This document shows positions 6,522-29,896 of a DNA stretch of 64,000 nucleotides, one piece after another. The notes beneath the pieces were generated by a model, which ran no database searches, was not told the DNA's origin, and saw only the letters and a list, made by a program, of their open reading frames with translations. The DNA is taken from NCBI GenBank assembly GCA_964427245.1, contig CAYRSX010000040.1:91258-155257 (forward strand), in the 5' to 3' direction. Numbering within the stretch: the first letter of the stretch is position 1; each line of letters begins with the position of its first letter. The translations under genes and the position numbers were made by a program. This DNA is from an uncultured Desulfobulbaceae bacterium. Lineage in GTDB: Bacteria; Desulfobacterota; Dissulfuribacteria; Dissulfuribacterales; DYLC01.

Positions 6522-7474
6522 AGATATTTACTCTGTTGGCAAATCTCATTGTCTATGATTGGCTTGGTATGGAAAAGGGCAGGCACCTTACCGATACCAT
6601 TCATTTCTTTATAGAAGATACCACAAAGATATTCTTTTTGCTTACGGTCATCATCTTTTTTGTGTCCATTATTCGCAGTTTCTTTACTCCGGAAAGGACT
6701 CGCCGGTTGCTATCTGGCAAAAGGCTGTTTCTGGGCAATATTCTGGCGGCTGGGTTGGGTGTGGTCACGCCATTTTGTTCCTGCTCCGCCTGCCCATTGT
6801 TCATTGGATTTGTGGAGTCAGGGATTCCTCTTGGAGTGACCTTTAGCTTTTTGATTTCATCGCCTATGGTAAACGAAGTGGCCCTGGTGCTGCTCTTGGG
6901 TTTGTTCGGTTGGAAGATTGCCGGCCTCTATCTGATATCTGGCCTTCTGGTGGCGATTGTAGCCGGTATAGTGATAGGGAAGCTCAATATGGAGCGCTAT
7001 GTTCAGGACTATGTCTGGCAGCTTCGCATGGGTGAGGTCCAAGAAACAGGAATGACGTGGCATGAGCGCATCGATTATGCCAAGGGTTATGTGCAGGACA
7101 TCCTGCGGCGCATTTGGCCCTATGTGCTTGGCGGAATTGGTGTAGGCGCTTTGATTCACGGCTATGTGCCAGAGGATTTCCTGCTTCGATATGCCGGGCC
7201 CGGCAACCCATTTGCCGTCCCTATAGCTGTGCTCATCGGGGTTCCGCTTTACAGCAATGCAGCAGGGGTCATTCCGGTGGTACAGGCCGTTATGTCGAAA
7301 GGACTGCCTTTGGGTACGACTTTGGCCTTTATGATGGCGGTGACCGCCCTTTCTGTCCCTGAAGCCACTATTCTTACGCAGGTGTTAAAAAAGGAATTAC
7401 TTTTCATATTCTTCGGCGTAGTGACCATTGCCATTATCGCAGTGGGATACCTTTTCAATTTTATGCTTGCATAG
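6515..7474 (+). CDS. COG0701/ArsP-like permease
   Basis: Polytopic membrane protein with the 'TPFCSCSACPLFIGF' motif typical of this permease family. Its start overlaps the arsR-like stop (ATGCTGA). Confidence 0.7.
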   Translation: MLKIFTLLANLIVYDWLGMEKGRHLTDTIHFFIEDTTKIFFLLTVIIFFVSIIRSFFTPERTRRLLSGKRLFLGNILAAGLGVVTPFCSCSACPLFIGFVESGIPLGVTFSFLISSPMVNEVALVLLLGLFGWKIAGLYLISGLLVAIVAGIVIGKLNMERYVQDYVWQLRMGEVQETGMTWHERIDYAKGYVQDILRRIWPYVLGGIGVGALIHGYVPEDFLLRYAGPGNPFAVPIAVLIGVPLYSNAAGVIPVVQAVMSKGLPLGTTLAFMMAVTALSVPEATILTQVLKKELLFIFFGVVTIAIIAVGYLFNFMLA

Positions 7475-7702: not shown

Positions 7703-8338
7703 ATGGAAAGAGCGATACTAATCAGAAAGGCTAAGTGGCTTGCAATAATAACTATAGGTTATAATGTGATAGAAGGCCTGATTTCTGTTCTCTTCGGTCT
7801 GCAGGATGACACCCTTGCTCTTTTCGGTTTTGGAATGGATTCTTTTGTAGAGATTATATCAGGCGCTGGCATTCTGCATATGATTTTTCGTATGGAGCGT
7901 GCAAATGGCGAGAAGCATGACGCCTTTGAAAGGCTGGCGCTTTTTATTACGGGCGTAGCCTTCTATTTGTTGGCTTTTGGTCTTATTGTAACTGCATGTA
8001 TGAATATTTATTTAGGAAAGATGCCTGAAACTACCTTTTGGGGTATAGTTGTATCATTGTTATCTATTTTTACTATGTATTTTTTGATGCGCATAAAATT
8101 AACTGTTGGAAGACAATTAAATTCTGAAGCAATTATACAAGATGCCCATTGTACACGTATGTGTATTTATCTTTCTTGGTTATTACTTTCAGCAAGTATT
8201 GGTTTTGAATTGACAAAAATAGGTTATATCGATTCTATAGGTGCTCTTGGCATTGCATATTTATCATGGAAGGAAGGAAAGGAATCGTTTCAAAAGGCTC
8301 GTGGAGAGATATGTACTTGTTGTTCTTGTGGCCATTAG
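7703..8338 (+). CDS. cation-efflux (CDF)-like membrane protein lacking the cytoplasmic domain, Cys-rich tail
   Basis: 'WLAIITIGYNVIEGLISVLFGLQDDTLALFGFGMDSFVEIISG' resembles CDF TM1-TM2. The C-terminus is 'CTCCSCGH'. The assignment is tentative. Confidence 0.45.
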   Translation: MERAILIRKAKWLAIITIGYNVIEGLISVLFGLQDDTLALFGFGMDSFVEIISGAGILHMIFRMERANGEKHDAFERLALFITGVAFYLLAFGLIVTACMNIYLGKMPETTFWGIVVSLLSIFTMYFLMRIKLTVGRQLNSEAIIQDAHCTRMCIYLSWLLLSASIGFELTKIGYIDSIGALGIAYLSWKEGKESFQKARGEICTCCSCGH

Positions 8339-8384
8339 TTTATTTAACTCATATTGAGTAGCTAGCATTTTTAGGAGGTCAACT

Positions 8385-8618
8385 ATGAAAATCGAAATAT
8401 TAGGTCCTGGTTGTGCAGGTTGTCAGCAGCTTGCCAAGAATGCCGAAGAGGCGGCCAAAGCCCTGAATCTCTCTTATGAAATAGTAAAGGTAACTGATAT
8501 GGCAAAGATCATTGGTTATGGAGTAATATCCACGCCGGGGATTGTGGTGGACGGTAAGCTCAAGGGTTCAGGGAAGCTTTTTACAGTGGATGAGATAAAG
8601 GGCTTTCTTGCCGGTTGA
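8385..8618 (+). CDS. thioredoxin-fold redox-active disulfide protein 2 family
   Basis: 'MKIEILGPGCAGCQQL...VISTPGIVVDGKL' is a 77-aa CxxC protein. It has an AGGAGG RBS and is typically linked to ArsR/permease pairs. Confidence 0.75.
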   Translation: MKIEILGPGCAGCQQLAKNAEEAAKALNLSYEIVKVTDMAKIIGYGVISTPGIVVDGKLKGSGKLFTVDEIKGFLAG

Positions 8619-8620
8619 TT

Positions 8621-8661
8621 CAATAAAAAACGCCACGTCACCATGATAATGGGTCGTGGCG
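8621..8661 (-). terminator. rho-independent terminator of the psiE-like gene
   Basis: Stem cgccacg (8631-8637) pairs with cgtggcg (8655-8661). On the minus strand it is followed by TTTTTTATT. Confidence 0.55.
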
Positions 8662-8676
8662 TCAATGGGTACATGG

Positions 8677-9174
8677 TTAACAGGAGCCGTCGGTTTGAAC
8701 TTTGGCGGAATTCCGCAATACCCAGACGGCTGCCACCAATATCAGTATCAATCCCCCCAGTATCGCAGTTTCTATCATGGCGTTTTGAAATGTCTGAGCG
8801 GTTTGAGGTGCTTCCGCATGGGCTGTCTGCAGGGAGATGATGAGTATGCGCCGAATGCTCGCTATGATTCCCACGAACAGAAACGGTTCTATGCAGGCAT
8901 GGAGTCTGCCTTTTAATACCACTTCCACTGTGTGAAATATCTCTAGAAACATGAGGGCGAGCAGCAGATTGTCCACGGAGTGAAAGATGACAGAGAAGAA
9001 GGTGGCCCCTTGTTCGAAGATGTGCAGAAGGCCAAGGACGGCATTCCAGACAGAGAGTATGGCGGTGCAGAGCAACCCTACTCCTATGACCAAATAGAGC
9101 AAGTGTTCTATTTGAAGACAGAGATTGCGGGATTTCTGTTCCCAACAGGGGATCGCATTCTCTTTGTTACTCAT
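8677..9174 (-). CDS. PsiE-like (phosphate-starvation-inducible E family) membrane protein
   Basis: Four hydrophobic segments. 'LLLALMFLEIFHTVEVVL...FLFVGIIASIRRILII' follows the PsiE pattern. The overlapping 209-aa frame (8516-9145) has a Ser/Arg/His-rich, non-protein-like composition. Confidence 0.5.
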   Translation of the reverse strand: MSNKENAIPCWEQKSRNLCLQIEHLLYLVIGVGLLCTAILSVWNAVLGLLHIFEQGATFFSVIFHSVDNLLLALMFLEIFHTVEVVLKGRLHACIEPFLFVGIIASIRRILIISLQTAHAEAPQTAQTFQNAMIETAILGGLILILVAAVWVLRNSAKVQTDGSC

Positions 9175-9200
9175 ATGAATTTCCTCGTTTTTTTGATTTA

Positions 9201-10049
9201 TTATGCAAATTCAGCCATTATTTTCTGCAAGTTGTTCGAATTCATGGCCTGCGATGAAAAATCCTCGGTAGCGGGCCTGAAAGCCCTGTCCGTAGTATCA
9301 TGTCGCTTTTCATACAGCACGCCAAGAGGGATTCTGTCCTCTGATTCCATGGCCTTTTCTAGAGCGGAGATTTGGTTGCCGGAGTCATGTGTTTCGGTAA
9401 GTTCATAGCAGCGTTCTCTGTACCATGCATAGGTATTTACCTTATTAAAGGAGACGCATGGTTGCAGTATGTCCACAATGGCCAGGCCTTTGTACTGAAC
9501 GGCCTTTGCCATGAGCTTCGTCAGGTGATCCGGCATGCCTGCAAAGCCTCGCGCCACGAAGCCGGCGCCCATAACGATTGCTACCGCCAGTGGATTGAAT
9601 GGAATTGCTGAATTGCCTTTGGGTTGTGCCTTGGTTACGAAGCCTTGTGGCGATGTGGGGCTGGCCTGGCCCTTGGTAAGTCCATATATGCGATTATTAT
9701 GTACAAAAAGGGTGATGTCCGGATTCTTGCGAATGGCCGCCAAAAAATGATTACCGCCTTCCCCGTACACACAGCCGTCTCCGCTTTCCACTATGACGGT
9801 GAGCCTTGGATTGGCCAGTTTGGCACCCATGGCTACAGGAATTGCCCTGCCGTGCAGGCCGTTAAAACAGTTGCAACGCAGATAATGAGGGGTCTTGGCT
9901 GCCTGGCCTATGCCTGATACAATGAGGATGTCCTGGGGCTTGAGTCCGCATTGCACCATTGCCTTTTTAAGACTGTTCAATATGCCGAAATTGCCACAGC
10001 CTGGACACCATGCCGTTTCAAAGTTTCCATAATCCTCTATCCCGGCCAT
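9201..10049 (-). CDS. korB: 2-oxoacid:ferredoxin oxidoreductase, beta (TPP-binding) subunit
   Basis: 'WCPGCGNFGIL' and 'ESGDGCVYGEGGNH' are TPP-binding motifs. Confidence 0.85.
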   Translation of the reverse strand: MAGIEDYGNFETAWCPGCGNFGILNSLKKAMVQCGLKPQDILIVSGIGQAAKTPHYLRCNCFNGLHGRAIPVAMGAKLANPRLTVIVESGDGCVYGEGGNHFLAAIRKNPDITLFVHNNRIYGLTKGQASPTSPQGFVTKAQPKGNSAIPFNPLAVAIVMGAGFVARGFAGMPDHLTKLMAKAVQYKGLAIVDILQPCVSFNKVNTYAWYRERCYELTETHDSGNQISALEKAMESEDRIPLGVLYEKRHDTTDRAFRPATEDFSSQAMNSNNLQKIMAEFA

Positions 10050-10785: not shown

Positions 10786-12456
10786 TTATTGAAGAATATA
10801 TTCTGCTGTAATGGGCATTCCGTCATAACGAAGTACATGTTTTGTAATGTGAAAACCGCTCTCTCTGCGCAACAGACGGGCGAATTGGCCGGTGGCATTG
10901 CCCTCCACCGCTATTACTTCATTGGCAGCTTGCAAGCGGTTTAGAAAGTGTGCTGGATTCAGTGGCCAGACCTGTGAGAAGTGCAAATTGGCCACAGACT
11001 CTCCACGGTTTCTCAAAATATTTCCTGCCTCCAAGGCAGGGCCATAGGTGGAACCCCAGGATAAAAATAGTCGTTTTGGGCTTTCTGGTCCCACATAGAC
11101 AGGTGGAATGATGTCTTCAGATAATCGGCGGAGCTTTTTAAGCCGTTTTTCCACCATCTGCTTTCTGACAATCAGATTCTCTGTTAGATGACCATCTTCA
11201 GTGTGTTCATCACTGTCGGCTACTACGAGTTGGTCTGTAATGCCCGGTAACAGACGGGGTGAGATGCCGTTTCGAGTGATTTTATAGCGCAGATAGGGGA
11301 TGTCCAGTCCTTCGAGGGTTGTTTCCCCAGTGCTGATTGGTTTAAGGTTGGAGGTATCGAATGGTTCCACAGTTTGGTATGAGTCTGCAAGAAATTGGTC
11401 TGTCAACAGAAATATAGGCCCTTGACTGGTCTCGGCCAGGTGAAATGCCCTGTAAGTAAGTTCAAAACATTCCTCAACAGTCCCTGGTGTCAGAATGGCC
11501 CTGGGAAACTCTCCATGTCCTGCATGTAAAATGAATTCCAGGTCGGCCTGTTCTGTTCGAGTAGGCAGGCCGGTGGCAGGCCCTGGTCTTTGGGCCACCA
11601 CTATCACGATGGGAGTTTCAGTCATTCCTGCCAGACTGACTCCTTCGGTCATCAGGGCAAAACCTCCGCCTGAAGTGGCCACCATGCTTGGAGCACCGGC
11701 AAAAGACGCTCCGATGGCCATGTTTATGGCTGCAATTTCGTCCTCTGTCTGTTCAACTGTCAGTCCCATTTCATCGGCATGAGATGCCAGAAGTATGGGA
11801 ATGGAAGTGGCAGGAGTCATGGGATAGAAGGCGCAGAATTTCATACCGGCTGCTATGGCGCCTAATGCTATTGCCTGGTTGCCGTTTAACATGATTCGTT
11901 TTACGATTTCGCCTTCATTGGTAGGCAAGTTTTTTTGCAGCCCGCTTATCTGTTGTAACCATGCCCTGGTCCGTTGAAAGGTCTCTATGTTTTCATTTAG
12001 GGTGTCTGCATGTTTTTTGCCGAGGCCCTCTTTGAACAGCGCGATGAAGGTGGTGTCCTGGAGTTGTAGTATTTCTGCAAGCACTCCTATGGCGATGGTA
12101 TTTTCCATGAGGGGCTGCCCGAGCTTCTTAAAAGGCACGCTGATGGCCTGTGGATGCGTTGGTTTGTCTTCAGCCCGGCAGATAGCTATTCCTTGTGGTG
12201 CCAGTCGGTTGCCGTGTAGCTTAAGGGTTTTACTGTTTAATGCTACTAATATGTCGATGGTCTGAATTGGAGAGAGCAGTGGGGCATTCCCGATGAGGAG
12301 AGTGAAAGTGTTGTTGCCTCCTCGAATTCTGGACTGATAGTCCTGAGTGACCAACACGAACAGCCCTTTTCTTATGAGGGCCTTACACAGCATCTCGCCG
12401 ATTGTTACGATTCCTTGGCCGGCTTCGCCTCCGATGCAGATGTTTAATCTTTGCAT
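10786..12456 (-). CDS. korA: 2-oxoacid:ferredoxin oxidoreductase, fused gamma-alpha subunit
   Basis: The N-terminus 'ICIGGEAGQGIVTIGEML' is gamma-type, followed by 'FYPMTPATSI' and 'ATSGGGFALM' alpha-subunit motifs. Confidence 0.85.
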   Translation of the reverse strand: MQRLNICIGGEAGQGIVTIGEMLCKALIRKGLFVLVTQDYQSRIRGGNNTFTLLIGNAPLLSPIQTIDILVALNSKTLKLHGNRLAPQGIAICRAEDKPTHPQAISVPFKKLGQPLMENTIAIGVLAEILQLQDTTFIALFKEGLGKKHADTLNENIETFQRTRAWLQQISGLQKNLPTNEGEIVKRIMLNGNQAIALGAIAAGMKFCAFYPMTPATSIPILLASHADEMGLTVEQTEDEIAAINMAIGASFAGAPSMVATSGGGFALMTEGVSLAGMTETPIVIVVAQRPGPATGLPTRTEQADLEFILHAGHGEFPRAILTPGTVEECFELTYRAFHLAETSQGPIFLLTDQFLADSYQTVEPFDTSNLKPISTGETTLEGLDIPYLRYKITRNGISPRLLPGITDQLVVADSDEHTEDGHLTENLIVRKQMVEKRLKKLRRLSEDIIPPVYVGPESPKRLFLSWGSTYGPALEAGNILRNRGESVANLHFSQVWPLNPAHFLNRLQAANEVIAVEGNATGQFARLLRRESGFHITKHVLRYDGMPITAEYILQ

Positions 12457-12792
12457 GATGTTAACCTCTTTCTCATTCCTTGAGGGTTATCGGCTTGTAA
12501 ACAATGTTGGCGTAGCACATAATAAGCCCTGCTGGTGCATTGTCTTTTCATATGTTGTGTCGATTAATTTATGTTCAATATTGCCGCGGCTTCAATGAGT
12601 TGGATTTCAGGCATGCTCTCATGCAGTATTTTTATTATTGTCTGTTTTTATTTTAAGCTCGCAGTTATCGGAATGCAAGCGGAATAATGGCAGGTTGTTG
12701 CAATATGACGGGGTGCAATTTAAGGTATTTTGTGTTAAAGAATTCCTATTCAGGTGTTACATTTGAAGGGGATAAACTGAAGGAGGATTGCA

Positions 12793-13164
12793 ATGCCCAT
12801 GCGTGCCAACGAAAAGAGACGATACAGGCGAATATATTTTGATTCAGCGGATTGGATGATGGCCACATTTGAACCTCTGAAATTGGGTGAGCCGCCGTTT
12901 CATGGGCAGCTTATGAACGTTTCTATAAACGGCCTGGCCTTTCAGCTTGTGGACGATATTCAGCTGCATGCCGGAGATACACTGATGCTTACGCATCTTG
13001 ATGGCAGATTGCCAATCACTTTCAGCGGAAGATTGCAATTGCAGGTCAAGTGGGTTATGGCCAATAATTTTTTTGAGCATCTTGCTATCGGGTGTGAATT
13101 TATCAATCCGCCTCGTGAGTTTACTGACAGACTTGGTAGCTTTATCTATAATGAGGTCAAGTGA
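12793..13164 (+). CDS. PilZ domain protein (c-di-GMP receptor type)
   Basis: Carries 'RRYRR' (RxxxR) and 'NVSINGLAF' (D/NxSxxG). AGGAGG RBS upstream. Confidence 0.75.
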   Translation: MPMRANEKRRYRRIYFDSADWMMATFEPLKLGEPPFHGQLMNVSINGLAFQLVDDIQLHAGDTLMLTHLDGRLPITFSGRLQLQVKWVMANNFFEHLAIGCEFINPPREFTDRLGSFIYNEVK

Positions 13165-13169
13165 GAGGC

Positions 13170-14213
13170 ATGGAGACTATCCTTTTCATTATAGAAAACG
13201 ATACACAATGTTTGAATGATTTCAATAAAATACAAACGTTATACGATAATTATCGAGTGGTATCAGTTGTAAGACATGATAATGTCATCGATGAGATATC
13301 ACAGCAGGATGTCAAGATCATAATAGTCTGCATTCCGGACATAACGACTTATGATTTCGATTTTATTCTTAACCTCACAGAAAATAAATCGGATATACCT
13401 GTCATAGCAGTAGCCGATACGGATATACCTGTGACCACACTGGCTGAAAGATATGACTGTTTTCGTTTTTTATCTGATACGAATCAATTGCAAAAAGCGA
13501 TCGAAGAGGCCATAGAAGCTACTCAAAAAGGTTATATTTCAGGTGTTTCCCTACAGATAGCCTTGCAGATGATAGAGCTGGAGTCGAAAACGTGTCTGAT
13601 AACCATCAAGTCGGAGAATGGAACCGGTGTCTTATTTTTCAAAAATGGGGAGCTGTTCGATGCTAGGTGCGGTGAATTGTCGGGCAAGGAAGCCGCGTTG
13701 GAGATCGTGTCCTGGGACAATGCCTCCATGGAGTTTCAAAATTTCTGTCCCAAAAGGCAAAAAAAAATCGATACCCCCCTGACCTTTCTGCTGCTGGAGG
13801 CATCCCGCAAAAGAGATGAGGGGCTAGAGTCGCCGGAAGAACTGAATGAGGAAGAACAGGAATCATTGTATGAATCGGCAGAGTCGGAGGGAGATCAGTC
13901 AACCTGCAATGTCTCATCTGCGGAACTGTCGAGCGTGGATACCATGGATTTTGACCGCAGAAATACTTTGCTTTCTTATGAAGATATCATGGCAGGTCCA
14001 CTTGCTGTTCAATTAAACGAGATTCAAAAGGCGTTTGCACGCGCCATAGGCCCTATAGCGCGCAATATTTTCAGGCGTCATCTGGAAGAGTGGGCGCGTG
14101 ACAATGTTCTTATAGCGGAAAACCTGGTGCATCTTACCGATATGTTGTGTACCGAGTTGGATGAAGAAGAATTGATAGTGGATTTCAGAAAGGCTGTCAA
14201 AGGGATTTCATGA
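13170..14213 (+). CDS. receiver-like domain + DUF4388 domain protein
   Basis: The N-terminus 'ILFIIEND...KIIIVCIPD' has a CheY-like layout. The central 'LQIALQMIELESKTCLITIKSENGTGVLFFKNGELFDARCGELSGKEAALEIVSW' matches the DUF4388 pattern and is followed by an acidic linker. GTG 13161 overlaps the PilZ stop and is an alternative start. Confidence 0.6.
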   Translation: METILFIIENDTQCLNDFNKIQTLYDNYRVVSVVRHDNVIDEISQQDVKIIIVCIPDITTYDFDFILNLTENKSDIPVIAVADTDIPVTTLAERYDCFRFLSDTNQLQKAIEEAIEATQKGYISGVSLQIALQMIELESKTCLITIKSENGTGVLFFKNGELFDARCGELSGKEAALEIVSWDNASMEFQNFCPKRQKKIDTPLTFLLLEASRKRDEGLESPEELNEEEQESLYESAESEGDQSTCNVSSAELSSVDTMDFDRRNTLLSYEDIMAGPLAVQLNEIQKAFARAIGPIARNIFRRHLEEWARDNVLIAENLVHLTDMLCTELDEEELIVDFRKAVKGIS

Positions 14214-14254
14214 CACGTATTAAATAAATAATCAGTCGACTGTGCTTACAAAAA

Positions 14255-14287
14255 AAGAGGATACTCATGTAACGTGAATATCCTCTT
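14255..14287. terminator. bidirectional rho-independent terminator
   Basis: aagaggata (14255-14263) pairs with tatcctctt (14279-14287). An A-run lies upstream and a T-run downstream, between convergent genes. Confidence 0.7.
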
Positions 14288-14311
14288 TTTTTGTGTTATG
14301 TGATACTGGTG

Positions 14312-15772
14312 TTAAAATTTGCAGTCCAACAACATGTAAACATCCTGCAATGTTTCATCACTCTTTTGAGGGCTGCCAACGTGAATACCGCTAAATGTAT
14401 AATTATAATCTATATATGTATATCCAAGCCTTGCGAATAGATTCTTGTTTAACGGCTGAATGTAGTAGAAATCGTAAACATTGCCTCGTGTGGCCAATTT
14501 GTTGTAGAATTCCAGGCTTGATTGAGTAAATGAGAACCAGTCTTTGCTGCCGTGGTTATATTCGAATCCGAGTTTGGGGTTGTTCAGCATCTCAAGCGGC
14601 ATCGTATATACCAGACCGGCATACAGCGCCCAGCCTGTCTTGGAATCCCTGCCGTCGTTGGAGAGCAGTCCGCCCGCAAACAGAGGCTGGCCGTTGAAGG
14701 TTATTAAAGTGGTTTTGCCATTGGGATGACTTACGTCCATACCAAAGGACAGAAAGGCATCAAAACCTGATTTCATTATGTTCTGTGCCTGTAAATGGGC
14801 GCCGAAGATGTCCATGTCTCCGAGATTGACAGTTGTATTCATAGGCATGTCAACCATATTCCATGCACGTACATAGCTTAAAACCATCAGGCTGTCGGAC
14901 AGAGACGGTATCTGGCTTTCAAAAAATATGCCCAATAGATTTGTGTCATTTATGCCCCAGCCGGAATCCCTGTAATCGGCGAAATCGTCGTCATCCTGGT
15001 AGCCTTTGCCATAGGCAAACCGAAGGCCTGAGTCTTTCCATCCGATATAATGCTCAAGACCTATGGTAGCTATCACACCATCGGCTTCGCCGTCAAAAAG
15101 AAGTGATGGATATGTGGATTGGCGGGGACGATTTTCTCTGAATTCAACAGGAGGGCCCTCGGTGGATGGTTGGCGTCCAAAGGTGATGGCCAGCGGTGCC
15201 GGCATGTTGGGTACTGTCCAGTCCACGTAAGCACGTTCGAAATTTACGTTTGTCGAAGATGCGGCATGGCCGCGATTGAAGTCTGTATAGAAAAACGGAT
15301 TGTCACTGTCTGCCCAATTTTTGGTTACTGCAAGTCGGCCATGAAACAGGAGCTCCTTGGAGATTTCAGCATCCATATTGATTCTGAAACGGCTGCTCCA
15401 GTGATTGTCATTGTGATCCCGCTCTGTTCCAAGAGGAGTCATGTAGTTTTTATCATAAAAATTATCTGCTCTTACTCGGACTTCAGCCCCTAGATTGAGG
15501 CGATCTTTAAGGGTTTTTGTTTCAACTCGATCCAGAGTATCATACATGTCATCGATCTGTTTTTTGACATTTCCGGGTGCAGCGGCCTCCTTGGGTTTGC
15601 TTTCAAGCTGCTCTACCCTTCTTTGCAGGGTATCGAGACGCTCAATAATAGCCTTATATGTATCCGCAGGTATGGTTACGGTCTGCTCTGCCGTTGCCAC
15701 CGATGGAATGATCGCCGAACCTACCCCAAACACGGATGCCAATCCCAAAACTGATACCGTCAAACGGTTCAT
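14312..15772 (-). CDS. putative outer-membrane beta-barrel protein (DUF3373-like)
   Basis: Signal peptide 'LGLASVFGVGSAIIPSVATA', N-terminal coiled coil 'LDTLQRRVEQLE', alternating-polarity strands, and C-terminal '...LLDCKF'. Confidence 0.55.
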   Translation of the reverse strand: MNRLTVSVLGLASVFGVGSAIIPSVATAEQTVTIPADTYKAIIERLDTLQRRVEQLESKPKEAAAPGNVKKQIDDMYDTLDRVETKTLKDRLNLGAEVRVRADNFYDKNYMTPLGTERDHNDNHWSSRFRINMDAEISKELLFHGRLAVTKNWADSDNPFFYTDFNRGHAASSTNVNFERAYVDWTVPNMPAPLAITFGRQPSTEGPPVEFRENRPRQSTYPSLLFDGEADGVIATIGLEHYIGWKDSGLRFAYGKGYQDDDDFADYRDSGWGINDTNLLGIFFESQIPSLSDSLMVLSYVRAWNMVDMPMNTTVNLGDMDIFGAHLQAQNIMKSGFDAFLSFGMDVSHPNGKTTLITFNGQPLFAGGLLSNDGRDSKTGWALYAGLVYTMPLEMLNNPKLGFEYNHGSKDWFSFTQSSLEFYNKLATRGNVYDFYYIQPLNKNLFARLGYTYIDYNYTFSGIHVGSPQKSDETLQDVYMLLDCKF

Positions 15773-15910
15773 AACTACCCTCCTTAATATGACAAATTCT
15801 TATAAACAATAATAAAAATGAAAAGATTGAACATATATATTTTGTGCCACTTTAATGATATGTCCAGTGATATCATGACGACTAAATTATTATTGGGAGT
15901 AATGATATAA

Positions 15911-16216
15911 TTATTTAGGTATGATAGCTGCGGCAGGCTGTTCGTTGTCCGCTGCATGTGATACCAGAAAATCTATGATTTTTGCCATATCCTGCGGCGC
16001 GATGTTTGAGATATCCACAGGATGCCGCGCTCTCTCGAAGTATTTCTTCCAAACAGCCCCAGCCTTTTCTCCGGGGCTGATGACGGCCGCTTGGCCATCT
16101 TTTTTGTGACAGCTGCCACACTTGGACAGAAATAAATTCTGATCGTCAGCGGCCATTACATCCATACTGCCCATCAGAAAGGCACTCGCCATGAGACTGA
16201 CTATGATTTTTCGCAT
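15911..16216 (-). CDS. periplasmic monohaem c-type cytochrome
   Basis: Signal peptide 'MRKIIVSLMASAFLMGSMDVMA' and a single 'CGSCH' haem-attachment motif. GGAGGTG RBS before ATG 16216. Confidence 0.7.
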   Translation of the reverse strand: MRKIIVSLMASAFLMGSMDVMAADDQNLFLSKCGSCHKKDGQAAVISPGEKAGAVWKKYFERARHPVDISNIAPQDMAKIIDFLVSHAADNEQPAAAIIPK

Positions 16217-16534
16217 TCGATACACCTCCACCCCTGTTGTTCTTTGTTATTTGTATAGCACATAAGGTAATCAAAAAACGCCGGACAAGACAACCAGCGA
16301 ATATAATCAAATTGATATGTTGTTCTATCCGGTACCAACAGTATATTTCTTTAATTTAATAATATAGTCAGAAAGATTGTGCAATACCTATTATATAAGG
16401 TTTCGATAATCTATTATATTATGAGGCCTGGCTGCCGAATGCAGCCCATATTTTTATTTTACGGCGACATCCTATTGTCTTTTTATGGTTTTTTGTTTTA
16501 TTGTGAAAAAACAATTTTCACAAGGAGAGACCAC

Positions 16535-17407
16535 ATGGGGATCGGCAAACGTTTTGGCATACTTTTAGGGGCGATTAGTTTCTTGGTTTTAACGGTTATA
16601 AGTATCGCTACATATTGGATGAGTGTCAACAACGCCAAAATGACAGCTGAAGAGAAAGGGGAATTGATATTTCTGTATCAACTAGCATCCCTTGATTATT
16701 TTATGCAGAAGCAGATACCACTTGCCATGGAGCTCCTGGAAAAGGATCGTTTTTATCCGGAACTCATGTCAGGTTTTGCTGCATCACGCTGGATACATGA
16801 AAATTTCAAGGTATATATGCCTGCTTATGAAATAAAATATGCAAGTCTGAACCCCTTGCGCAAGGAAAATGCAGCTAATTCGGAAGAAAGCCGTATAATT
16901 CAGGAGTTCAAGGCGCAACCTGCGCTCAAACAACAGAAGGGTTTCATGAAATCGGAACAAAAAGGCCGTCTTTATTTTCTGGCGCGGCCTATTCCGGTGA
17001 AGGCAGATTGTCTTAAATGTCATGGTTCTCCGGTTGATGCGCCAAAGGATCAGATTGCCATATATGGCTCGACTCATGGCTATAATTGGCAGGTCAATGA
17101 TGTTCTTTCGATGTTTATAGTCTATATCCCTTTTGAACAGGTCTTAATTGATGCCAGATACAATGCCTTTAAGATATTTGCTCTTGGTGCAGCCATTTTG
17201 CTGGTGGCCATTCTGATTATCAGTTTAACCTTAAACAAGACTATCATAAGACCTATAGTGGATCTTAGCAAGCGGGCTGAAGAGGTCAGCATGGGTGAAA
17301 AATTGGACGAAAAGATAGTATATCCTGGAAAATATGAGATATCAGATCTGGCAAAATCCATCAATAGACTGAGAATAAGTATAAATAAAATGCAAAAGAT
17401 GTTATAG
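16535..17407 (+). CDS. membrane sensor: DUF3365 (Tll0287-like, CxxCH) periplasmic domain + TM + HAMP, no output domain
   Basis: AAGGAGAG RBS before ATG 16535. N-terminal TM 'FGILLGAISFLVLTVISIATYW'. 'CLKCHGSPVDAPKDQIAIYGSTHGYNWQVNDV' is a DUF3365-type motif. A second TM follows, then HAMP 'IIRPIVDLSKRAEEVS...ISDLAKSINRL', then the stop. Confidence 0.65.
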   Translation: MGIGKRFGILLGAISFLVLTVISIATYWMSVNNAKMTAEEKGELIFLYQLASLDYFMQKQIPLAMELLEKDRFYPELMSGFAASRWIHENFKVYMPAYEIKYASLNPLRKENAANSEESRIIQEFKAQPALKQQKGFMKSEQKGRLYFLARPIPVKADCLKCHGSPVDAPKDQIAIYGSTHGYNWQVNDVLSMFIVYIPFEQVLIDARYNAFKIFALGAAILLVAILIISLTLNKTIIRPIVDLSKRAEEVSMGEKLDEKIVYPGKYEISDLAKSINRLRISINKMQKML

Positions 17408-17416
17408 GAGAGGCAT

Positions 17417-18100
17417 ATGTTCAGAAAAACAATTCTTATAGGTTATGTCTTCTTAGTAGTAACTTGTATAAGTGCTTCAAACGTGATTGCTAATGAATGT
17501 AAATCTGTTCTAAATCAGGCTGAATCTGTAAGCTCATTACTGGAAAAAAATAAAATTCTGGGCGATGCAATCGGACAGTGTGGTCAGGATCCTGAGTGGA
17601 ATTATACTTATGCCTATTCCCTTGAACGCCTGAGAAAGTATGCGGATGCAGCTAATCATTATAAAAAAGCTATATCAATAGATAATAAACAATACAAGTA
17701 TTATGTGGGGCTTGGAGATGTGTTGAAAAATATGGGTAGTTATGAAGGGGCAGTGAATGCATATAAAAATGCCCTTCAATTAAATCCTAATGATCATAGG
17801 TTGGTCAAAGAATTGGAGGCATTGACGCCTATGATACCTAAAAAAGAAACAACTACACAGAAAATGCCTGAAGCACAGGAGATAAAACCGAAGGAACCAA
17901 CGGTAGCAAAAGAGGTTGAAAGATCGGTAGAAAATATTGCAATAAGCTTTCAGCAGCCTTATGAGAAATCTATTTGCTCCTTGAATGTTAATGAGGAAAA
18001 GCAAAAGAATTTATTAAGCATGACAGAGAAATATGTCAATGATATAAAGCAAAAAAACAGTGCGGATGTAGGCTATTTTACAACATCAATCAGCAAATAG
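17417..18100 (+). CDS. secreted TPR-repeat protein
   Basis: Signal peptide, then TPR units ('YAYSLERLRKYADAANHYKKAISIDNKQ', 'YEGAVNAYKNALQLNPND'). GGAGAGG RBS; 9 nt after the upstream stop. Confidence 0.65.
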   Translation: MFRKTILIGYVFLVVTCISASNVIANECKSVLNQAESVSSLLEKNKILGDAIGQCGQDPEWNYTYAYSLERLRKYADAANHYKKAISIDNKQYKYYVGLGDVLKNMGSYEGAVNAYKNALQLNPNDHRLVKELEALTPMIPKKETTTQKMPEAQEIKPKEPTVAKEVERSVENIAISFQQPYEKSICSLNVNEEKQKNLLSMTEKYVNDIKQKNSADVGYFTTSISK

Positions 18101-18120
18101 TCTAATAAAAGGATAAAAAC

Positions 18121-19395
18121 ATGCTCAATAAAATGACAATTTGTTTAAGCATAGTGGTGATATTGAATATATTTATAGCGGATCAAATTCTCGCTGATTG
18201 TGTTCAGGGGAATTGCATGGATGGTTACGGCGTCTTTGAGTACAGTAATAGTAAGTATTTGGGAGAGTGGAAAGACGGTAAGCGTCATGGTAAGGGCAAA
18301 AGAATCTATAATGATGGTTCATATTATGAAGGTGAATGGGTCAATGGCAGGGAGGATGGTTTAGGTGTCTCAGTGGACGCCAACGGCGAAAAATATGAAG
18401 GGCAATGGAAAAGGGGGAGCCGGAATGGAGACGGCTATCTGACATTGCAGGATGGTTCGAAGCATGCTGTGACCTATGAAGACGATATGCTTGTCACGGG
18501 TGGTGTCGAGGCTGTGGATGGTGCAAAGACGTCGGGTGTCAAGGCAGTCGCATTCGAGAAGGCTGCGCAGCAGCTATATGCCGACGGTAGCTCATACTCA
18601 GGAGAGATGGTTGATGGCCTTTATCACGGAAAGGGCATTCGGATTTTTGCCGATGGAGCGCGTTATGATGGCTACTGGGAACGAGGGGTACCATTCGGGA
18701 AAGGCGTCATGGCATATCCTGACGGAACGGTATATGACGGCGAGTGGGAAAAAGGTGTGAAAAACGGCAGGGGTGTCCTTGTGATGGCTGATAAAACCAG
18801 ATATGAGGGTGAGTTTGTCGACGGCCTGCCCAATGGCCAGGGATATTTCAAATATGCGGATGGAACGAGTTATCAGGGCGATGTTGTAAATGGGATTCCT
18901 CATGGTGAGGGCAGACAGGTGTATTTGAACGGCGATACATATCAAGGGCATTGGGAACACGGCAAAAGGACAGGTCAGGGCGTCTATGCCGCGGTAGCCG
19001 GAATCCGCTACGAAGGCAAGTGGTTGGACGATCTGCCGGCAGAGAATGGTGCTTTGGATTGCGGAAACGGTATAAAGGTGTCCGGCCCTATAAAAAATAA
19101 TGCATTTGTCGGCGAGGTAGTGGTTACATACCCTGATGGCGACAGGTACTCCGGCAATCTAAAAAATGGTCTGCGAAGCGGCAATGGTACATATCTCTTC
19201 AGAAACGGGCACAAATATTCGGGTGAATGGTCGGAAAACAGATTTTCAGGTGAAGGTGTGTATGCCTTTTCGGAGCTCAGTAAGTTTATGGGTAAATTTA
19301 AAAACAACATGGCTGAAGGCGATGGCATCTACATAGACTCAAGCGGCAAAAGATATGTGGGCAGGTGGCATCAAAATCATTTGGTTGGCAGATAG
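18121..19395 (+). CDS. secreted MORN-repeat protein
   Basis: N-terminal hydrophobic leader, then more than 12 tandem 'YxGxWxxGxxxGxG' MORN units across the whole protein. Confidence 0.75.
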   Translation: MLNKMTICLSIVVILNIFIADQILADCVQGNCMDGYGVFEYSNSKYLGEWKDGKRHGKGKRIYNDGSYYEGEWVNGREDGLGVSVDANGEKYEGQWKRGSRNGDGYLTLQDGSKHAVTYEDDMLVTGGVEAVDGAKTSGVKAVAFEKAAQQLYADGSSYSGEMVDGLYHGKGIRIFADGARYDGYWERGVPFGKGVMAYPDGTVYDGEWEKGVKNGRGVLVMADKTRYEGEFVDGLPNGQGYFKYADGTSYQGDVVNGIPHGEGRQVYLNGDTYQGHWEHGKRTGQGVYAAVAGIRYEGKWLDDLPAENGALDCGNGIKVSGPIKNNAFVGEVVVTYPDGDRYSGNLKNGLRSGNGTYLFRNGHKYSGEWSENRFSGEGVYAFSELSKFMGKFKNNMAEGDGIYIDSSGKRYVGRWHQNHLVGR

Positions 19396-19460
19396 GCGCA
19401 TTCATGATGGTTAGATATGGTTGGAATGTTCGAATCTTTTATGTTGTTCAATATTTGGAT

Positions 19461-19490
19461 TTGACAGCCTGCCGGAGTATCTTGTAATTT
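19461..19490 (+). promoter_or_regulatory. candidate sigma70-type promoter upstream of lon
   Basis: TTGACA (19461-19466), 18 nt, TAATTT (19485-19490). Pattern only. Confidence 0.3.
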
Positions 19491-19551
19491 GAACTGGAAC
19501 TTTCATTAGTAAATAGTGTCGTTCAATTTTTTAGAATAGGCGGCTCAGCCC

Positions 19552-21942
19552 ATGGAAATATCTGACACCTTGACTAGTATAATGGAATTTGGGGATCAAC
19601 AGTCCATCGACATTCCGGACCAATTGCCACTTATGGCTGTGAGGGACATAGTTATTTATCCGTCCATGATCGTTCCATTGTTTGTGGGCAGAGGTGCATC
19701 TGTGGCGGCGGTCAACGAGGCTATGGCTACCAATAAACTCATCTTTCTCGTTACTCAGAAGGATTCAGCCGAAGAGGATCCGGGTAAGGATGGGCTGTAT
19801 AAGGTTGGGGTGGTCGCTGTGGTTATGAGGGGGCTTCAGCTTCCGGACGGACGCCTCAAGATACTTGCCCAGGCCATCATGAAGGCCAAAATCCTTACAT
19901 TCGTGCAGGAGAAGCCGTTTATTGCTGTCAGGCTTAAGCCCCTGCCCGAGGCGCCGCCTAAGGGAACAGGGGTTGAGATCGAGGCCCTTATTCGAAATGT
20001 TAGAGAGCAGGCGGAAAAGCTCTTCGGGCTTAAGGGCGTTTTAAATCCTGAATTGACCGGTATTCTGAACGAGATTGACGATCCTGGCAGATTGGCCGAC
20101 ATGATCGCTTCCAATATGCGTTTTGCGCTTGCTGACGCGCAGCATCTTCTGGAACTTGTGAATCCATTGGAGCGGCTCAAGGTCCTAAACGACCTGCTCT
20201 CTCGCGAGCTGGAGATATCATTTGTGCAGGCCAAGATTCAATCCGAGGCCAAAGAGGAGATGAATCGCACGCAGCGTGAGTATTTCCTGCGCGAACAGCT
20301 TAGGGCCATAAAAAAAGAACTCGGAGAACTTGACGAAAAAGAGGATGAACTAGAGGAGTTGCGCGAGGGGGTCCTGAATGCGAAGATGCCGCAGGATATC
20401 TATGAAGAGGTCATGAAACAGATAGACCGTCTGGAGGCCATGCATCCTGATTCCGGCGAGACCTCCATGGTGCGCACCTATATCGAATGGCTCATCGATC
20501 TGCCCTGGTCGTCAGCGACGCGTGACAAAATGGATGTGGCTTATGCCAGACGCGTTCTCGACGAAGAACATTATGACCTAGAGAAAATAAAAGAGCGAAT
20601 ACTGGAATATATCGCTGTCAGAAAGCTGAATCGCCAGGTTAAAGGCCCTATTCTGTGTTTTCTGGGCCCTCCGGGTGTGGGTAAGACATCCCTCGGTCGC
20701 TCCATAGCCAAGGCCATAGGCAGAAAGTTCGTACGTATATCCCTGGGTGGTGTGAGGGATGAGGCCGAGATTCGAGGCCACAGACGTACATATCTGGGAG
20801 CCATGCCGGGCCGAATCATACAGGGTCTCAAGCGGGCCGGCACCAATAATCCTGTCTTTATGATGGATGAAGTGGATAAGATCGGAACGGATTTCAGGGG
20901 GGATCCTGCATCAGCCCTTCTGGAGGCATTGGATCCCGAACAGAATAACAGTTTTGTGGATCACTATATCGATCTGCCCTTCGATCTATCTAAGGTCATT
21001 TTTATTTTGACGGCCAATGCCACCGACACCATTCCTTCACCGCTTCTGGATCGTCTGGAGATCATAGAGCTCTCAGGTTATACCACCGAAGAAAAGAAAC
21101 AGATAGCTACGCGGTATCTTATACCGAAACAGGCGAAAGAGCATGGTATAAAACCGAGTCAGATGGAGATAACGGAACAAGCCCTGGTGTCTATCATAAC
21201 AGATTATACTCGTGAGGCCGGTGTTCGTGAGTTGGAGCGTCAGATTGGTTCAGTATGCAGGAAAATAGCCAAAAAACTGGCTGAGGGCCAGGCAGGTCCG
21301 TTCAGGGTCTCGCACAAAAACCTTCACCGCTATCTGGGAGTCGTTAAGTACCAGCCCGAACTGGCTATGGAAGAGGATGAAGTGGGTGTGTCCACCGGTC
21401 TGGCTTGGACACCATATGGAGGCGAGGTCTTGCGTATAGAGGCCGCTCTTGTGAAGGGTAAGGGGAATGTTGTGATCACAGGGCTTCTGGGAGAGGTAAT
21501 GAAGGAATCGTGCCAGGCCGCCCTGAGCTATACCAAGTCCATTTTGGAGAAATTGGGTATCGATTCAAAATTTTTTGAGGAGAAGGACCTGCATGTGCAT
21601 GTCCCTTCGGGCGCTGTTCCTAAAGATGGCCCTTCTGCAGGTATCACTCTTACTACGGCCATCATTTCATCGGCCCTTGGCAAGGCTGTGCGAAAGAACG
21701 TGGCCATGACCGGCGAGATCACACTTCGAGGCCGTGTTCTGCCCATAGGCGGATTGAAGGAAAAGTCCTTGGCTGCGCTGCGTTATGGAATCGAGACGGT
21801 CATAATACCTGAACAGAACCTGAAGGACTTGGAGGAATTGCCTTCATACCTCAGACGTGCCATAGCCTTCATACCTGTCAGACACATGAATGAGGTTTTA
21901 CCCCTGGTTTTCAAGGATAAAATCAGCCTGCAAACCTCCTGA
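19552..21942 (+). CDS. lon: ATP-dependent Lon protease
   Basis: 'GPPGVGKTS' Walker A and the '[11 protein letters not shown]' catalytic Ser motif, with a LON N-terminal domain. Confidence 0.95.
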
Positions 21943-29017: not shown

Positions 29018-29896
29018 TTATTCTTTTATGCGCCTTATGAGTTGATCTATATGTAGTGCAGGTCTGTTGAGAAATGGCGTAGGGTCAAAGGCTGGGTCTT
29101 CCGGCAGCACTTCGGTGGTCTCCAGCCCCTTTAATTCCATTCGTATCTCCAGAGGAAAGGCCGTCAATCTTAAGGTGATATCAGTTGGATAGAGACAGCC
29201 GGTTTGAATCATCTGCGGCTTTCTGTAAAATATTTCCATATCTTTTAGTCCCAAATACTCCGAAGCCATGGTCCTGGAATTCTTGGCCCAGAGGCCTGTC
29301 AGGGTGTTGGTGGCCTTCTGGCCGTTGCTGCAGGAGATGGTATTGCAAAGCAGGGTGTCTTGCGGCATCTGCTGAAGCAGAGAATCCATTTGGCGGTTGC
29401 AGGATATTTGTTGAGTATCGCATCGAGTCGATGCCTCCCAGGGGGACAGGGCGAGCCGTATCTCGGTGGCCAGCAGGCGCATGTCCTGGCCTTGAAGGCC
29501 TTGTTCGATGTTTGCCCAATAGACCATGTCCTCGGATGGCAGTGAAAGGTAGATGCTTTCACCTATTGCCAGATAATCGAAGATGGGCATGCCGAGGGCA
29601 CCTATGCCTGTAAGTCTCATGTTTATGGAATTTTCTGTTTTGGCCCAGGTCAGAACGGCCCTGAATTTGGGCTGAGGCTGGTCTTTGAGTATGATCTGGG
29701 CAATGACTTGAGAATGCATGCCGACTGGTTCCGTCTTTTCCTGCAGATTGTTTTCGATATGGCTGGGTACGTCGATATTGTGGGTTGTGAGCACCTCTTG
29801 GGCTGCACAACCATGTAGAAGCAGCAGGTAAGGGCCGATACAAAGGCTGGCGCAGAGCCTGACGATGGTGTGTAATATCTTTACCGATCTGGGCAT
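29018..29896 (-). CDS. hypothetical lipoprotein
   Basis: Signal sequence ending 'LLLLHGC' (lipobox-like). No recognisable catalytic motif. Confidence 0.5.
   Translation of the reverse strand: MPRSVKILHTIVRLCASLCIGPYLLLLHGCAAQEVLTTHNIDVPSHIENNLQEKTEPVGMHSQVIAQIILKDQPQPKFRAVLTWAKTENSINMRLTGIGALGMPIFDYLAIGESIYLSLPSEDMVYWANIEQGLQGQDMRLLATEIRLALSPWEASTRCDTQQISCNRQMDSLLQQMPQDTLLCNTISCSNGQKATNTLTGLWAKNSRTMASEYLGLKDMEIFYRKPQMIQTGCLYPTDITLRLTAFPLEIRMELKGLETTEVLPEDPAFDPTPFLNRPALHIDQLIRRIKE

Follow-up and report, generated by a model that had tools for sequence, protein, structure and literature searches.

Proteins of the DUF3373 family are placed under a putative porin family in work based on TCDB, in which the Pfam family corresponds to TCDB 1.B.62 and perhaps also to 1.B.60 (Omp50), for which 'DUF373' is entered in the Pfam column (PMC4827864). 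In Campylobacter jejuni, the omp50 gene is co-transcribed with cj1169c, the gene of a small protein of the periplasm; aerotolerance is reduced in the double mutant (PMC3694039), and the loss of Omp50 lowers motility (PMC7887314). In Dissulfuribacter thermophilus, a DUF3373 protein is one of the most abundant proteins (PMC13490349). A porin gene of this family is found in the stretch of DNA analyzed here, which comprises 64,000 nucleotides of contig CAYRSX010000040.1 from an uncultured Desulfobulbaceae bacterium (hereafter, the window), where it is accompanied by the gene of a small monohaem cytochrome c, and where these two genes diverge from an operon that encodes a membrane receptor with a periplasmic haem-c Cache domain and a HAMP domain, a TPR protein, and a MORN-repeat protein.

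Receptors that end in a HAMP domain are represented by Af1503 of Archaeoglobus fulgidus, which is made up of two membrane segments, an extracytoplasmic domain and the HAMP domain, with nothing after it. Tll0287-like domains, which include that of the receptor in the window, have been re-classified as haem-c Cache (sCache_heme) sensors, and those fused to signalling modules have been proposed as sensors of nitric oxide (NO), the stand-alone members appearing redox-like (bioRxiv 10.64898/2026.02.01.703092). The PATAN domains, which are encoded near this type of receptor in most loci, as described below, bind in cyanobacteria the N-domain of PilB1 and are localized at the membrane independently of PilB1 and PilC, via unidentified partners (bioRxiv 10.1101/2021.06.11.447907). 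The literature searched contained no description of a cassette formed by a porin, its partner and, in some cases, a receptor, nor of a unit formed by an output-less haem-Cache/HAMP receptor, a TPR protein and a PATAN protein; every piece belongs to a known kind, and the conserved cassettes appear to be undescribed.

Given the comparison with related loci, we lean towards reading the region as two independently conserved cassettes that lie side by side, in which a porin and its partner have been inserted into a haem-sensor/PATAN signalling locus. Two separate patterns of conservation were observed, together with the domain identities of the proteins and an enrichment of receptor genes at the porin cassette. 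For the porin, more than 450 relatives were obtained at E <= 1e-5 (120 of them listed, mostly 50-70% identical), and a metagenome scan with an alignment of these relatives resulted in 72 porin-anchored loci (L072-L143; all loci are referred to by L numbers). For the receptor, one genome per GTDB species was scanned, which resulted in 70 receptor-anchored loci from Desulfobulbales, Desulfurivibrionaceae, Desulfuromusa, Geopsychrobacteraceae and others.

The preliminary description of the locus had recognized two leftward and three rightward genes, with gaps of 9 and 20 nt between the latter, an AT-rich spacer between the two groups, and five products that are all predicted to lie in or beyond the inner membrane, and this layout was confirmed: the five open reading frames (ORFs) are present in the ORF list of the window at the same positions, their coordinates give the same gaps, the guanine-plus-cytosine (GC) content of the spacer is 0.336 vs 0.469 across the whole window, and each product starts with a hydrophobic N-terminal signal or anchor segment. 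The statement that none of the products has an assigned function must be corrected, as two of the five (DUF3373 and Tll0287-like) belong to families to which a function has been attributed. The leftward 486-aa protein, which had been considered barrel-like and similar to DUF3373, matches PF11853 at residues 120-476 (239.6 bits, cut-off 26.1, E 8.4e-71) and shows full-length homology to the solved '50 kDa outer membrane protein', PDB 10aw/10dn (E 1.8e-38; two entries, six chains), with its residues 44-486 aligned to residues 32-473 of chain 10aw_A. It begins with a hydrophobic signal peptide ending in ATA-EQ and terminates in ...LLDCKF, an aromatic last residue. The AlphaFold2 (AF2) model (predicted local distance difference test, pLDDT, 68; predicted TM-score 0.66) presents a signal helix and two further helices (36-58 and 66-90) ahead of 17-18 strands, and is matched by OmpF, OmpK36, OprP, AlgE and OmpM1 in Foldseek (E ~1e-11). 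The mature protein is predicted to be a pore former, with a periplasmic two-helix stalk (~36-90) that follows the signal peptide and precedes a barrel of ~18 strands.

The other products also correspond to what had been described. The cytochrome has one CxxCH behind a Sec-type signal peptide (MRKIIV...VMA-AD), its mature form has ~8 kDa, and its ATG start lies behind a GGAGG ribosome-binding site (RBS). Its Pfam score is 19.8 bits vs a cut-off of 21.3 (PF00034/PF13442), and the homologue from L086 reaches 27.2 vs 27 for PF13442; a weak match to the DHC N-domain 3u99 (E 8e-4) is the only sequence-level hint of its fold, and Foldseek returned nothing significant for its low-confidence AF2 model (pLDDT 67). 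The receptor, described as a periplasmic CxxCH domain with a HAMP domain and no output, was found by the Pfam scan and the end of its ORF to be exactly that, and the secreted TPR and MORN proteins were recognized by their repeats (Table 1) and by their N-terminal signal or anchor segments.

The first pattern of conservation concerns the porin and the small protein. Of the 58 porin loci with at least 400 nt of upstream DNA, 55 have a homologue of this partner directly upstream of the porin gene and on the same strand, 52 of which were found by search, and three on inspection, i.e., L122 and L124, which have a haem-less form, and L132, in which the porin is frameshifted. The adjacency holds down to a porin identity of 33-39%, and two of the three exceptions are the most distant porins of the set (L141 and L142, with 27-28% identity), the third being a partial match (L143). 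In 49 distinct partner sequences, F29, C33, C36, H37, P48, K51, F60 and R62 are invariant, R64 and H65 are nearly invariant (98%), and the C-terminal tail, HAADSDQPAAAxIPK-COOH, is nearly invariant as well, with an invariant IPK end. No methionine is conserved in these sequences, which means that the conserved distal Met ligand of class I cytochrome c is missing.

In a low-GC clade (mean GC 0.37 vs 0.51), in which the porin is 33-39% identical, the partner homologue has no haem motif, given that a 12-residue deletion takes out LFLxKCGxCH; H65 is also gone, and the end HAADSDxPEAAG(M/L) is kept. This haem-less partner, of 85 aa and with the C-terminus ...YLxxHAADSDxPEAAG(M/L), was observed in L122-L129, L134, L135 and L139 (e.g., L128 5709-5966), and it has no Pfam family and no homologue in the PDB. 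As H65 is 98% conserved where the haem is present, and is lost together with the CxxCH in the haem-less homologues, the haem of the partner is probably bis-His ligated, through H37 and H65. As the haem-less homologues keep their position next to the porin, the link between partner and porin is independent of the haem, and the pair is an old and tightly linked cassette.

Tandem copies of the cytochrome are found in L073, L102 and L118, and L144 also has a second tandem paralogue (6876-7256, minus strand), whose tail is duplicated (...EQPVFAVIPK...AQPAAAIIPK). When the partner profile was compared with 1.84 billion representatives, 193 clusters were obtained, in which the members of ~100 aa that were inspected have the HAADSD motif, and a word-index search with the 101-aa cytochrome returned only 12 proteins. 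Fusions of the partner were considered as a possible 'Rosetta stone', although those with DctP, PEGA and Ser/Thr kinase domains have the appearance of generic cytochrome c domains, and they were put aside as providing no clear lead.

Genes of sensory receptors are concentrated around this cassette. In 26 of the 57 porin-anchored loci with at least 1.5 kb on a side, 24 genes for methyl-accepting chemotaxis proteins (MCPs) and three GGDEF genes are found on the same strand and no more than 400 nt from the cassette, in comparison with only two MCP genes in the other 438 kb of the same 57 loci, and none in the 1.03 Mb of receptor-anchored loci that were searched in the same way. A common N-terminal periplasmic domain, which is helical, unannotated and ~270 aa long, is found in the MCPs of L073-L076, encoded downstream of the cassette, and in the GGDEF proteins of L108, L109 and L136, encoded upstream, and this domain is homologous at the profile level to that of a third group of MCPs (hhalign 95.7%, 270 columns). 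The haem-less clade has another, shorter sensor domain, and an MCP of this type is present in 10 of its 11 loci, which indicates that the type of sensor tracks the type of partner. Kinship among the loci inflates these counts, although the variety of the arrangements argues for a real association of the cassette with receptors.

Other neighbours characterize one subclade (L084, L086, L090, L093 and L121), in which a gene for a BepA-like M48 peptidase with TPR repeats comes after the cassette and is followed by DUF6901 and, in L084, L086 and L121, by a GAF-HD protein. HypF lies ahead of the cassette in all five of these loci, together with an AIR-synthase-like (HypE-like) gene in all except L090.

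The second pattern is that of the receptor, which matches PF11845 (Tll0287-like) with 102.7 bits (cut-off 24.1, E 3e-29) and the HAMP family PF00672 with E 2e-6, and whose haem-Cache domain lies between membrane segments at ~7-29 and ~209-231. The predicted haem site is CLKCH at residue 159, and C159, C162 and H163 are invariant in an alignment of 18 family members. The best PDB match of its HAMP domain is Af1503 (E 1e-10). The protein stops 7 residues past HAMP, without an output domain, and the next gene, 9 nt on, has its own signal peptide. The possibility of a truncated gene was rejected given the position of this second signal peptide and a length of 287-300 aa that is kept in at least 70 species. 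In a protein search, 45 clusters of 208-301 aa were obtained (41 of them at 279-301 aa), all of which have the Tll0287-like domain, with or without HAMP, and no other domain.

The most constant partner of this receptor is the TPR protein, a homologue of which is encoded immediately downstream in 64 of 71 loci. Residues 27-135 of the protein in the window align with the TPR part of a TPR-OmpA protein from L028, with no OmpA match in Pfam and no alignment to the OmpA part of the L028 protein, and, as judged by this alignment, it is a short form of the constant downstream partner. The OmpA domain present in most lineages presumably tethers the TPR protein to the peptidoglycan; this domain is absent in the clade of the window, and the MORN protein comes after instead. 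The latter, encoded by the third gene of the receptor operon, is specific to certain lineages and was found in this position only in L001-L004 (among the 70 receptor-anchored loci), L072 and L144/L145, with nothing there in most loci. A MORN-repeat gene for a protein of 481 aa (L113 1680-3125) also lies 6 nt after a DUF3373 porin gene, the only case in the 72 porin-anchored loci.

In the 41 receptor loci that are well flanked (with 4 kb or more of upstream and 5 kb or more of downstream DNA), a PATAN/DUF4388 gene is near the receptor in 33, an OmpA-type TPR gene is present in 32, a T2SSE (MshEN) ATPase gene in 17, and MORN and PilZ genes in three each. The proximity of the receptor and PATAN genes persists through at least four gene orders. 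The arrangement is convergent in Desulfobulbales and co-directional both in Desulfuromusa, where the PATAN genes are downstream, and in Desulfurivibrio, where they are upstream; in the window, the PATAN gene lies upstream of the receptor, with the porin cassette in between. The PilZ gene keeps its position in L001-L003 and L144. In L028 and L039, the neighbours identified with Pfam are a REC-DUF4388 protein, a TPR protein whose C-terminal part is an OmpA domain, a T2SSE ATPase of 780 aa that includes an MshEN domain, and an unknown 476-aa protein, in addition to a small protein without a Pfam family that is matched by phmmer with the DUF4388 protein of the window.

The PATAN protein of the window matches PF14332 (52.7 bits, cut-off 25, E 5e-14), and its DUF8082 domain (PF26309) is known from the precomputed annotation of an identical protein. 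Its identity to the L028 REC-PATAN protein is 33%, with a cysteine at the position of the phospho-acceptor aspartate, and no Response_reg match was obtained in Pfam, whereas the relatives of the L028 type do have PF00072. Given this cysteine and the missing receiver match, its N-terminus is likely a pseudo-receiver. The protein is likely the cytoplasmic partner of the HAMP receptor.

In more distant relatives, with receptors that are 51-54% identical, a FlaG gene lies directly upstream of the receptor-TPR operon (L146 7550-7966, L147 1225-1641 and L148 350-766), and the third gene encodes a lipoprotein of ~290 aa, and not a MORN protein. A homologue of the L146 lipoprotein is encoded by a 292-aa ORF in the window (29018-29896, minus strand; tblastn E 3e-18, 23% identity), 10 kb from the receptor. 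Genes for an MtrB_PioB-type barrel and for a multihaem cytochrome are also present in the L146 locus (14527-16870), ~5.6 kb from the receptor operon.

Joint conservation of all five genes has a much narrower range. The porin and cytochrome genes adjoin the receptor only in L001-L003, the nearest relatives, among the 70 receptor-anchored loci, and of the 72 porin-anchored loci only L072, which is closely related to the window, has the receptor, TPR and MORN genes. The five-gene arrangement, flanked by the PilZ and PATAN genes, reaches down to ~59-70% protein identity, in the sister lineage of L144/L145, where the receptor is 59%, the porin 70%, the MORN protein 43%, the TPR protein 36% and the PATAN protein 44% identical to those of the window. 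The order there is PilZ, PATAN-DUF8082, a group of MCP, porin, cytochrome and cytochrome genes on the opposite strand, receptor, TPR and MORN. The window looks like a derivative of an arrangement of this type without the MCP and one of the cytochrome copies, a reading of the gene order that is based on the gap of only 98 nt between its porin and PATAN genes and on its lack of an MCP orthologue. In L004, with a receptor identity of 51%, the receptor-TPR-MORN operon has an isocitrate dehydrogenase gene upstream and no porin cassette, and in L146 and L147 (51-54%) the order is FlaG-receptor-TPR-lipoprotein, again without the porin cassette.

A distant DUF3373 paralogue of 578 aa (Pfam E 1.9e-114) is encoded divergently next to the receptor in L047, from a Desulfocapsa metagenome-assembled genome (MAG), at 7956-9692 on the minus strand. 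This locus has no cytochrome beside the porin gene, no TPR gene after the receptor and no PATAN gene. The persistence of the arrangement in L144/L145, the adjacency in L047 and that of the porin and MORN genes in L113 lend a modest probability to cooperation between the two cassettes in this clade.

Table 1. Features of the locus, with positions counted from the first nucleotide of the window.
Feature	Coordinates	Strand	Family matches and other characteristics
PilZ-domain protein, 123 aa	12793..13164	+	PF07238, E 2e-6; directly upstream of the PATAN gene
Cytoplasmic protein with (likely) pseudo-receiver, PATAN (DUF4388) and DUF8082, 347 aa	13170..14213	+	PF14332, PF26309
Omp50/DUF3373-family outer-membrane porin (predicted pore former), 486 aa	14312..15772	-	PF11853; PDB 10aw homology; AF2 and Foldseek
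Spacer between cytochrome and porin	15773..15910		138 nt; GC 0.25, very AT-rich
Small periplasmic monohaem cytochrome c, 101 aa	15911..16216	-	CGSCH at residue 33; 'HAADSD...IPK' family
Divergent intergenic region	16217..16534		318 nt; promoter-like site, hairpin and T-run, short inverted repeats before the receptor RBS
Membrane receptor, 290 aa: first membrane segment, haem-c Cache (Tll0287-like), second membrane segment, HAMP	16535..17407	+	PF11845, PF00672
Periplasmic TPR protein, 227 aa	17417..18100	+	TPR families, E down to 2.6e-12
Secreted MORN-repeat protein, 424 aa	18121..19395	+	PF02493, E 4.9e-64, 208.9 bits, 10 stretches

An identical copy of the locus is present on a 43-kb Logan contig, and the closest named relative is a Dissulfuribacterales MAG with a receptor that is 94% identical. 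The spacer between the cytochrome and porin genes is longer in the window than in most related loci, where the gap is ~20-45 nt, and the co-transcription of the pair in the window is thus not certain. The start of the receptor is an ATG behind AGGAGAG, and its 5' leader has a GC-rich hairpin followed by a T-run at 16430-16455 (GGCTGCCGAATGCAGCC CATATTTTTA), as well as short A/T inverted repeats (TTGTTTT/AAAACAA and GAAAA/TTTTC) at 16493-16519, immediately ahead of the RBS. The block of inverted repeats is kept in L002 and L003, and the hairpin of L002 has another stem sequence. Scans of the region for promoters and terminators gave counts at chance level, and no Rfam match was obtained at E <= 0.1 within positions 12000-20000 of the window.

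In the mechanism that we propose, the first cassette (15911-16216 and 14312-15772, minus strand) would be composed of an Omp50-family porin of the trimeric type and a small periplasmic partner that works physically with it, probably docked by its conserved C-terminal tail. The pair may form an entry-and-detection device for a periplasmic signal, given the frequency with which chemoreceptors or diguanylate cyclases with a dedicated helical periplasmic domain are encoded in one operon with the cassette. The haem of the partner, probably held by His37 and His65, would make it responsive to the redox state or to small ligands, and the lineage of the window would have lost the chemoreceptor that its sister lineage kept. 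The aerotolerance and motility phenotypes of C. jejuni fit such a sensing role of the porin and its partner loosely.

The second cassette (16535-19395 and 12793-14213) would be a signalling unit, in which the periplasmic haem-c Cache domain may sense NO or the redox state, and, as the HAMP domain has no fused output, the signal would be handed by HAMP to the cytoplasmic pseudo-receiver-PATAN protein. The context of the output may be cyclic di-GMP (c-di-GMP) in this clade, through PilZ, and in Desulfobulbales an MshE-type ATPase of type IV pili or secretion is encoded beside the unit. The binding of PATAN domains to PilB1, as well as their localization through membrane partners, matches the REC-PATAN/MshE-type ATPase neighbourhood and the links to c-di-GMP (MshEN and PilZ). 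The TPR protein would be a fixed periplasmic partner of the receptor, and the MORN protein a clade-specific addition. Here, we infer all of the protein-protein contacts, the nature of the signal and the output. We also put forward, tentatively and as a possibility of rather low probability, a broader scheme, in which the Omp50-family porin, its HAADSD partner (haem-bearing or haem-less) and the neighbouring receptor, with its dedicated helical periplasmic domain, would form a hitherto unrecognized sensory pathway of three parts, leading from the outer membrane to chemoreceptors or diguanylate cyclases. In this clade, the pathway would have been inserted into, and possibly rewired to, output-less haem-Cache/HAMP receptor signalling via PATAN and PilZ.

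The preliminary description had regarded the five genes as one self-contained extracytoplasmic envelope module for redox sensing or electron exchange, and had proposed to check the conservation of the neighbourhood across relatives, in which the five genes were found together in the window's own clade, and not more widely. This explanation draws on the signal or anchor sequence found on all five products, on an arrangement with PilZ and PATAN that is the same in L144/L145 at 59% (receptor), 70% (porin) and 36-44% (TPR, MORN and PATAN) identity, and on the divergent DUF3373 paralogue of L047 and the MORN gene directly after DUF3373 in L113. It is unlikely, however, given that the two halves are apart in almost all other loci, the porin being absent in 66 of the 70 receptor-anchored loci and the receptor in 71 of the 72 porin-anchored loci, that L004, L146 and L147 have the receptor-TPR operon without the porin cassette, and that the conserved partners of the receptor include the PATAN proteins, which are cytoplasmic. 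As for the role that had been suggested, the theme of sensing is reasonable, and an exchange of electrons across the outer membrane is unlikely, since the cytochrome has one haem and its homologue in the sister clade has none. It may also be that the cassettes are coupled in this clade only and that, with the MCP lost, the cytochrome communicates with the haem-Cache receptor across the periplasm, either as a reporter or by an exchange of electrons. The porin cassette usually lies beside a HAMP-containing receptor, the haem-Cache/HAMP protein is the sole adjacent receptor in the window, with a common divergent control region of 318 nt, and the cassette of L144 is flanked by both the MCP and the haem-Cache receptor, but the helical sensor domains usually found with the cassette have no relationship to the haem-Cache domain, and the adjacency arose once, or at most twice, which makes such a coupling doubtful.

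A third explanation dispenses with signalling altogether, considering that the partner plugs a general porin or serves it as an accessory in structure or assembly, that the haem-Cache protein is a membrane-anchored redox protein, and that the neighbouring regulators are coincidental. It would fit the high abundance of the DUF3373 protein in D. thermophilus, the BepA-like M48/TPR peptidase that follows the cassette in 18 loci and suggests a link to the biogenesis of outer-membrane proteins, the redox-like nature of stand-alone haem-Cache proteins, and the haem-less homologues, in which the haem is dispensable for the partnership. The strong and repeated enrichment of MCP and GGDEF genes at the cassette, with a common dedicated sensor domain, the canonical HAMP with conserved motifs that the receptor keeps in at least 70 species, and the proximity of the PATAN genes through several gene orders speak against this, and we consider it quite improbable. 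By far the least probable is an extracellular electron conduit like MtrAB or OmaB-OmbB-OmcB, which would be suggested by a cytochrome gene that is co-operonic with the gene of an outer-membrane barrel. This candidate was rejected given a cytochrome of ~8 kDa with a single haem, haem-less orthologues in the sister clade, an Omp50/OmpF-like DUF3373 barrel of ~18 strands with no PF11854 MtrB_PioB match in the Pfam scan, and a cluster in which neither a multihaem nor a surface cytochrome, nor any further cytochrome, is encoded.

The reading of the region as two neighbouring cassettes also has points that weigh against it. All of the functional links are drawn from gene neighbourhood, and many of the loci are related, so that the counts do not represent independent events. 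The persistence of the five-gene arrangement in L144/L145, at 59-70% identity, is compatible with a real functional link between the cassettes, the PATAN gene is absent from eight of the 41 well-flanked receptor loci, and tblastn searches of the 64-kb window found neither an MshE-type ATPase nor an MCP orthologue elsewhere in it. In addition, the porin may simply be a major general porin, like the abundant protein of D. thermophilus (PMC13490349), the fold and the distal ligand of the cytochrome are not established by a model of such low confidence (pLDDT 67), and the output-less receptor could fall in the redox-like class of stand-alone haem-Cache proteins, rather than among the sensors.

If the preferred reading of two cassettes and their proposed roles is true, the Omp50-type porins, which are abundant in sulfur-cycling Desulfobacterota, would be parts of a conserved two- or three-component device, and not simple diffusion channels, with a haem-bearing periplasmic partner as the sensing element and a dedicated chemoreceptor as the readout. 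The adjacent PATAN proteins would offer a concrete candidate answer to the question of how output-less HAMP receptors signal, which has existed since Af1503, and the receptor family would be a candidate for the unidentified membrane partner of the PATAN regulators. The modules are present in the cultured Desulfuromusa kysingii, Desulfurivibrio dismutans, Hydrosulfovibrio ferrireducens and Thiovibrio, which makes both ideas testable.

Among the systems described, the porin cassette is closest to Omp50 of C. jejuni (Cj1170c; PDB 10aw/10dn), with which the porin has full-length homology, including the N-terminal helices and a barrel with an aromatic end. The sequence identity is low, however, and the small gene is downstream of the porin in C. 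jejuni, whereas the partner gene is upstream in loci of the window type; neither a cytochrome partner nor an adjacent chemoreceptor has been reported for Omp50. A similar three-step logic is found, by analogy only, in the maltose chemotaxis of Escherichia coli, which employs the LamB channel, a periplasmic maltose-binding protein and the Tar chemoreceptor with its helical periplasmic domain. There is no homology between the two systems, the genes of the cassette are contiguous, its partner is a haem protein, and the chemoreceptor is absent in the window. MtrCAB and OmaB-OmbB-OmcB are alike in having a cytochrome gene beside a barrel gene, but differ in their 8-10 haems, as opposed to one here, and in their barrel family, and no surface cytochrome is present here.

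The receptor resembles Tll0287, GSU0582 and GSU0935 (sCache_heme, DUF3365) in its PF11845 domain, with an invariant CxxCH and a periplasmic position between membrane segments, followed by HAMP. The sCache_heme sensors described carry MCP, kinase or GGDEF/EAL outputs, whereas this family ends shortly after HAMP and is an orthologous group of its own, in which the TPR and PATAN neighbours are fixed. Af1503, which is alike in its HAMP domain, has an extracytoplasmic domain that is unrelated to that of the receptor and has no haem. Finally, the PatA-type regulators of Synechocystis (PixE, PixG and LsiR) have PATAN followed by a receiver, in contrast with the receiver followed by PATAN that is found here, where the copy in the window also has a cysteine at the phospho-acceptor position and no CheA-type kinase nearby; the two groups nevertheless have the PATAN/DUF4388 domain in common, and in the relatives of the window its fusion to a receiver is encoded beside a PilB/MshE-like ATPase.

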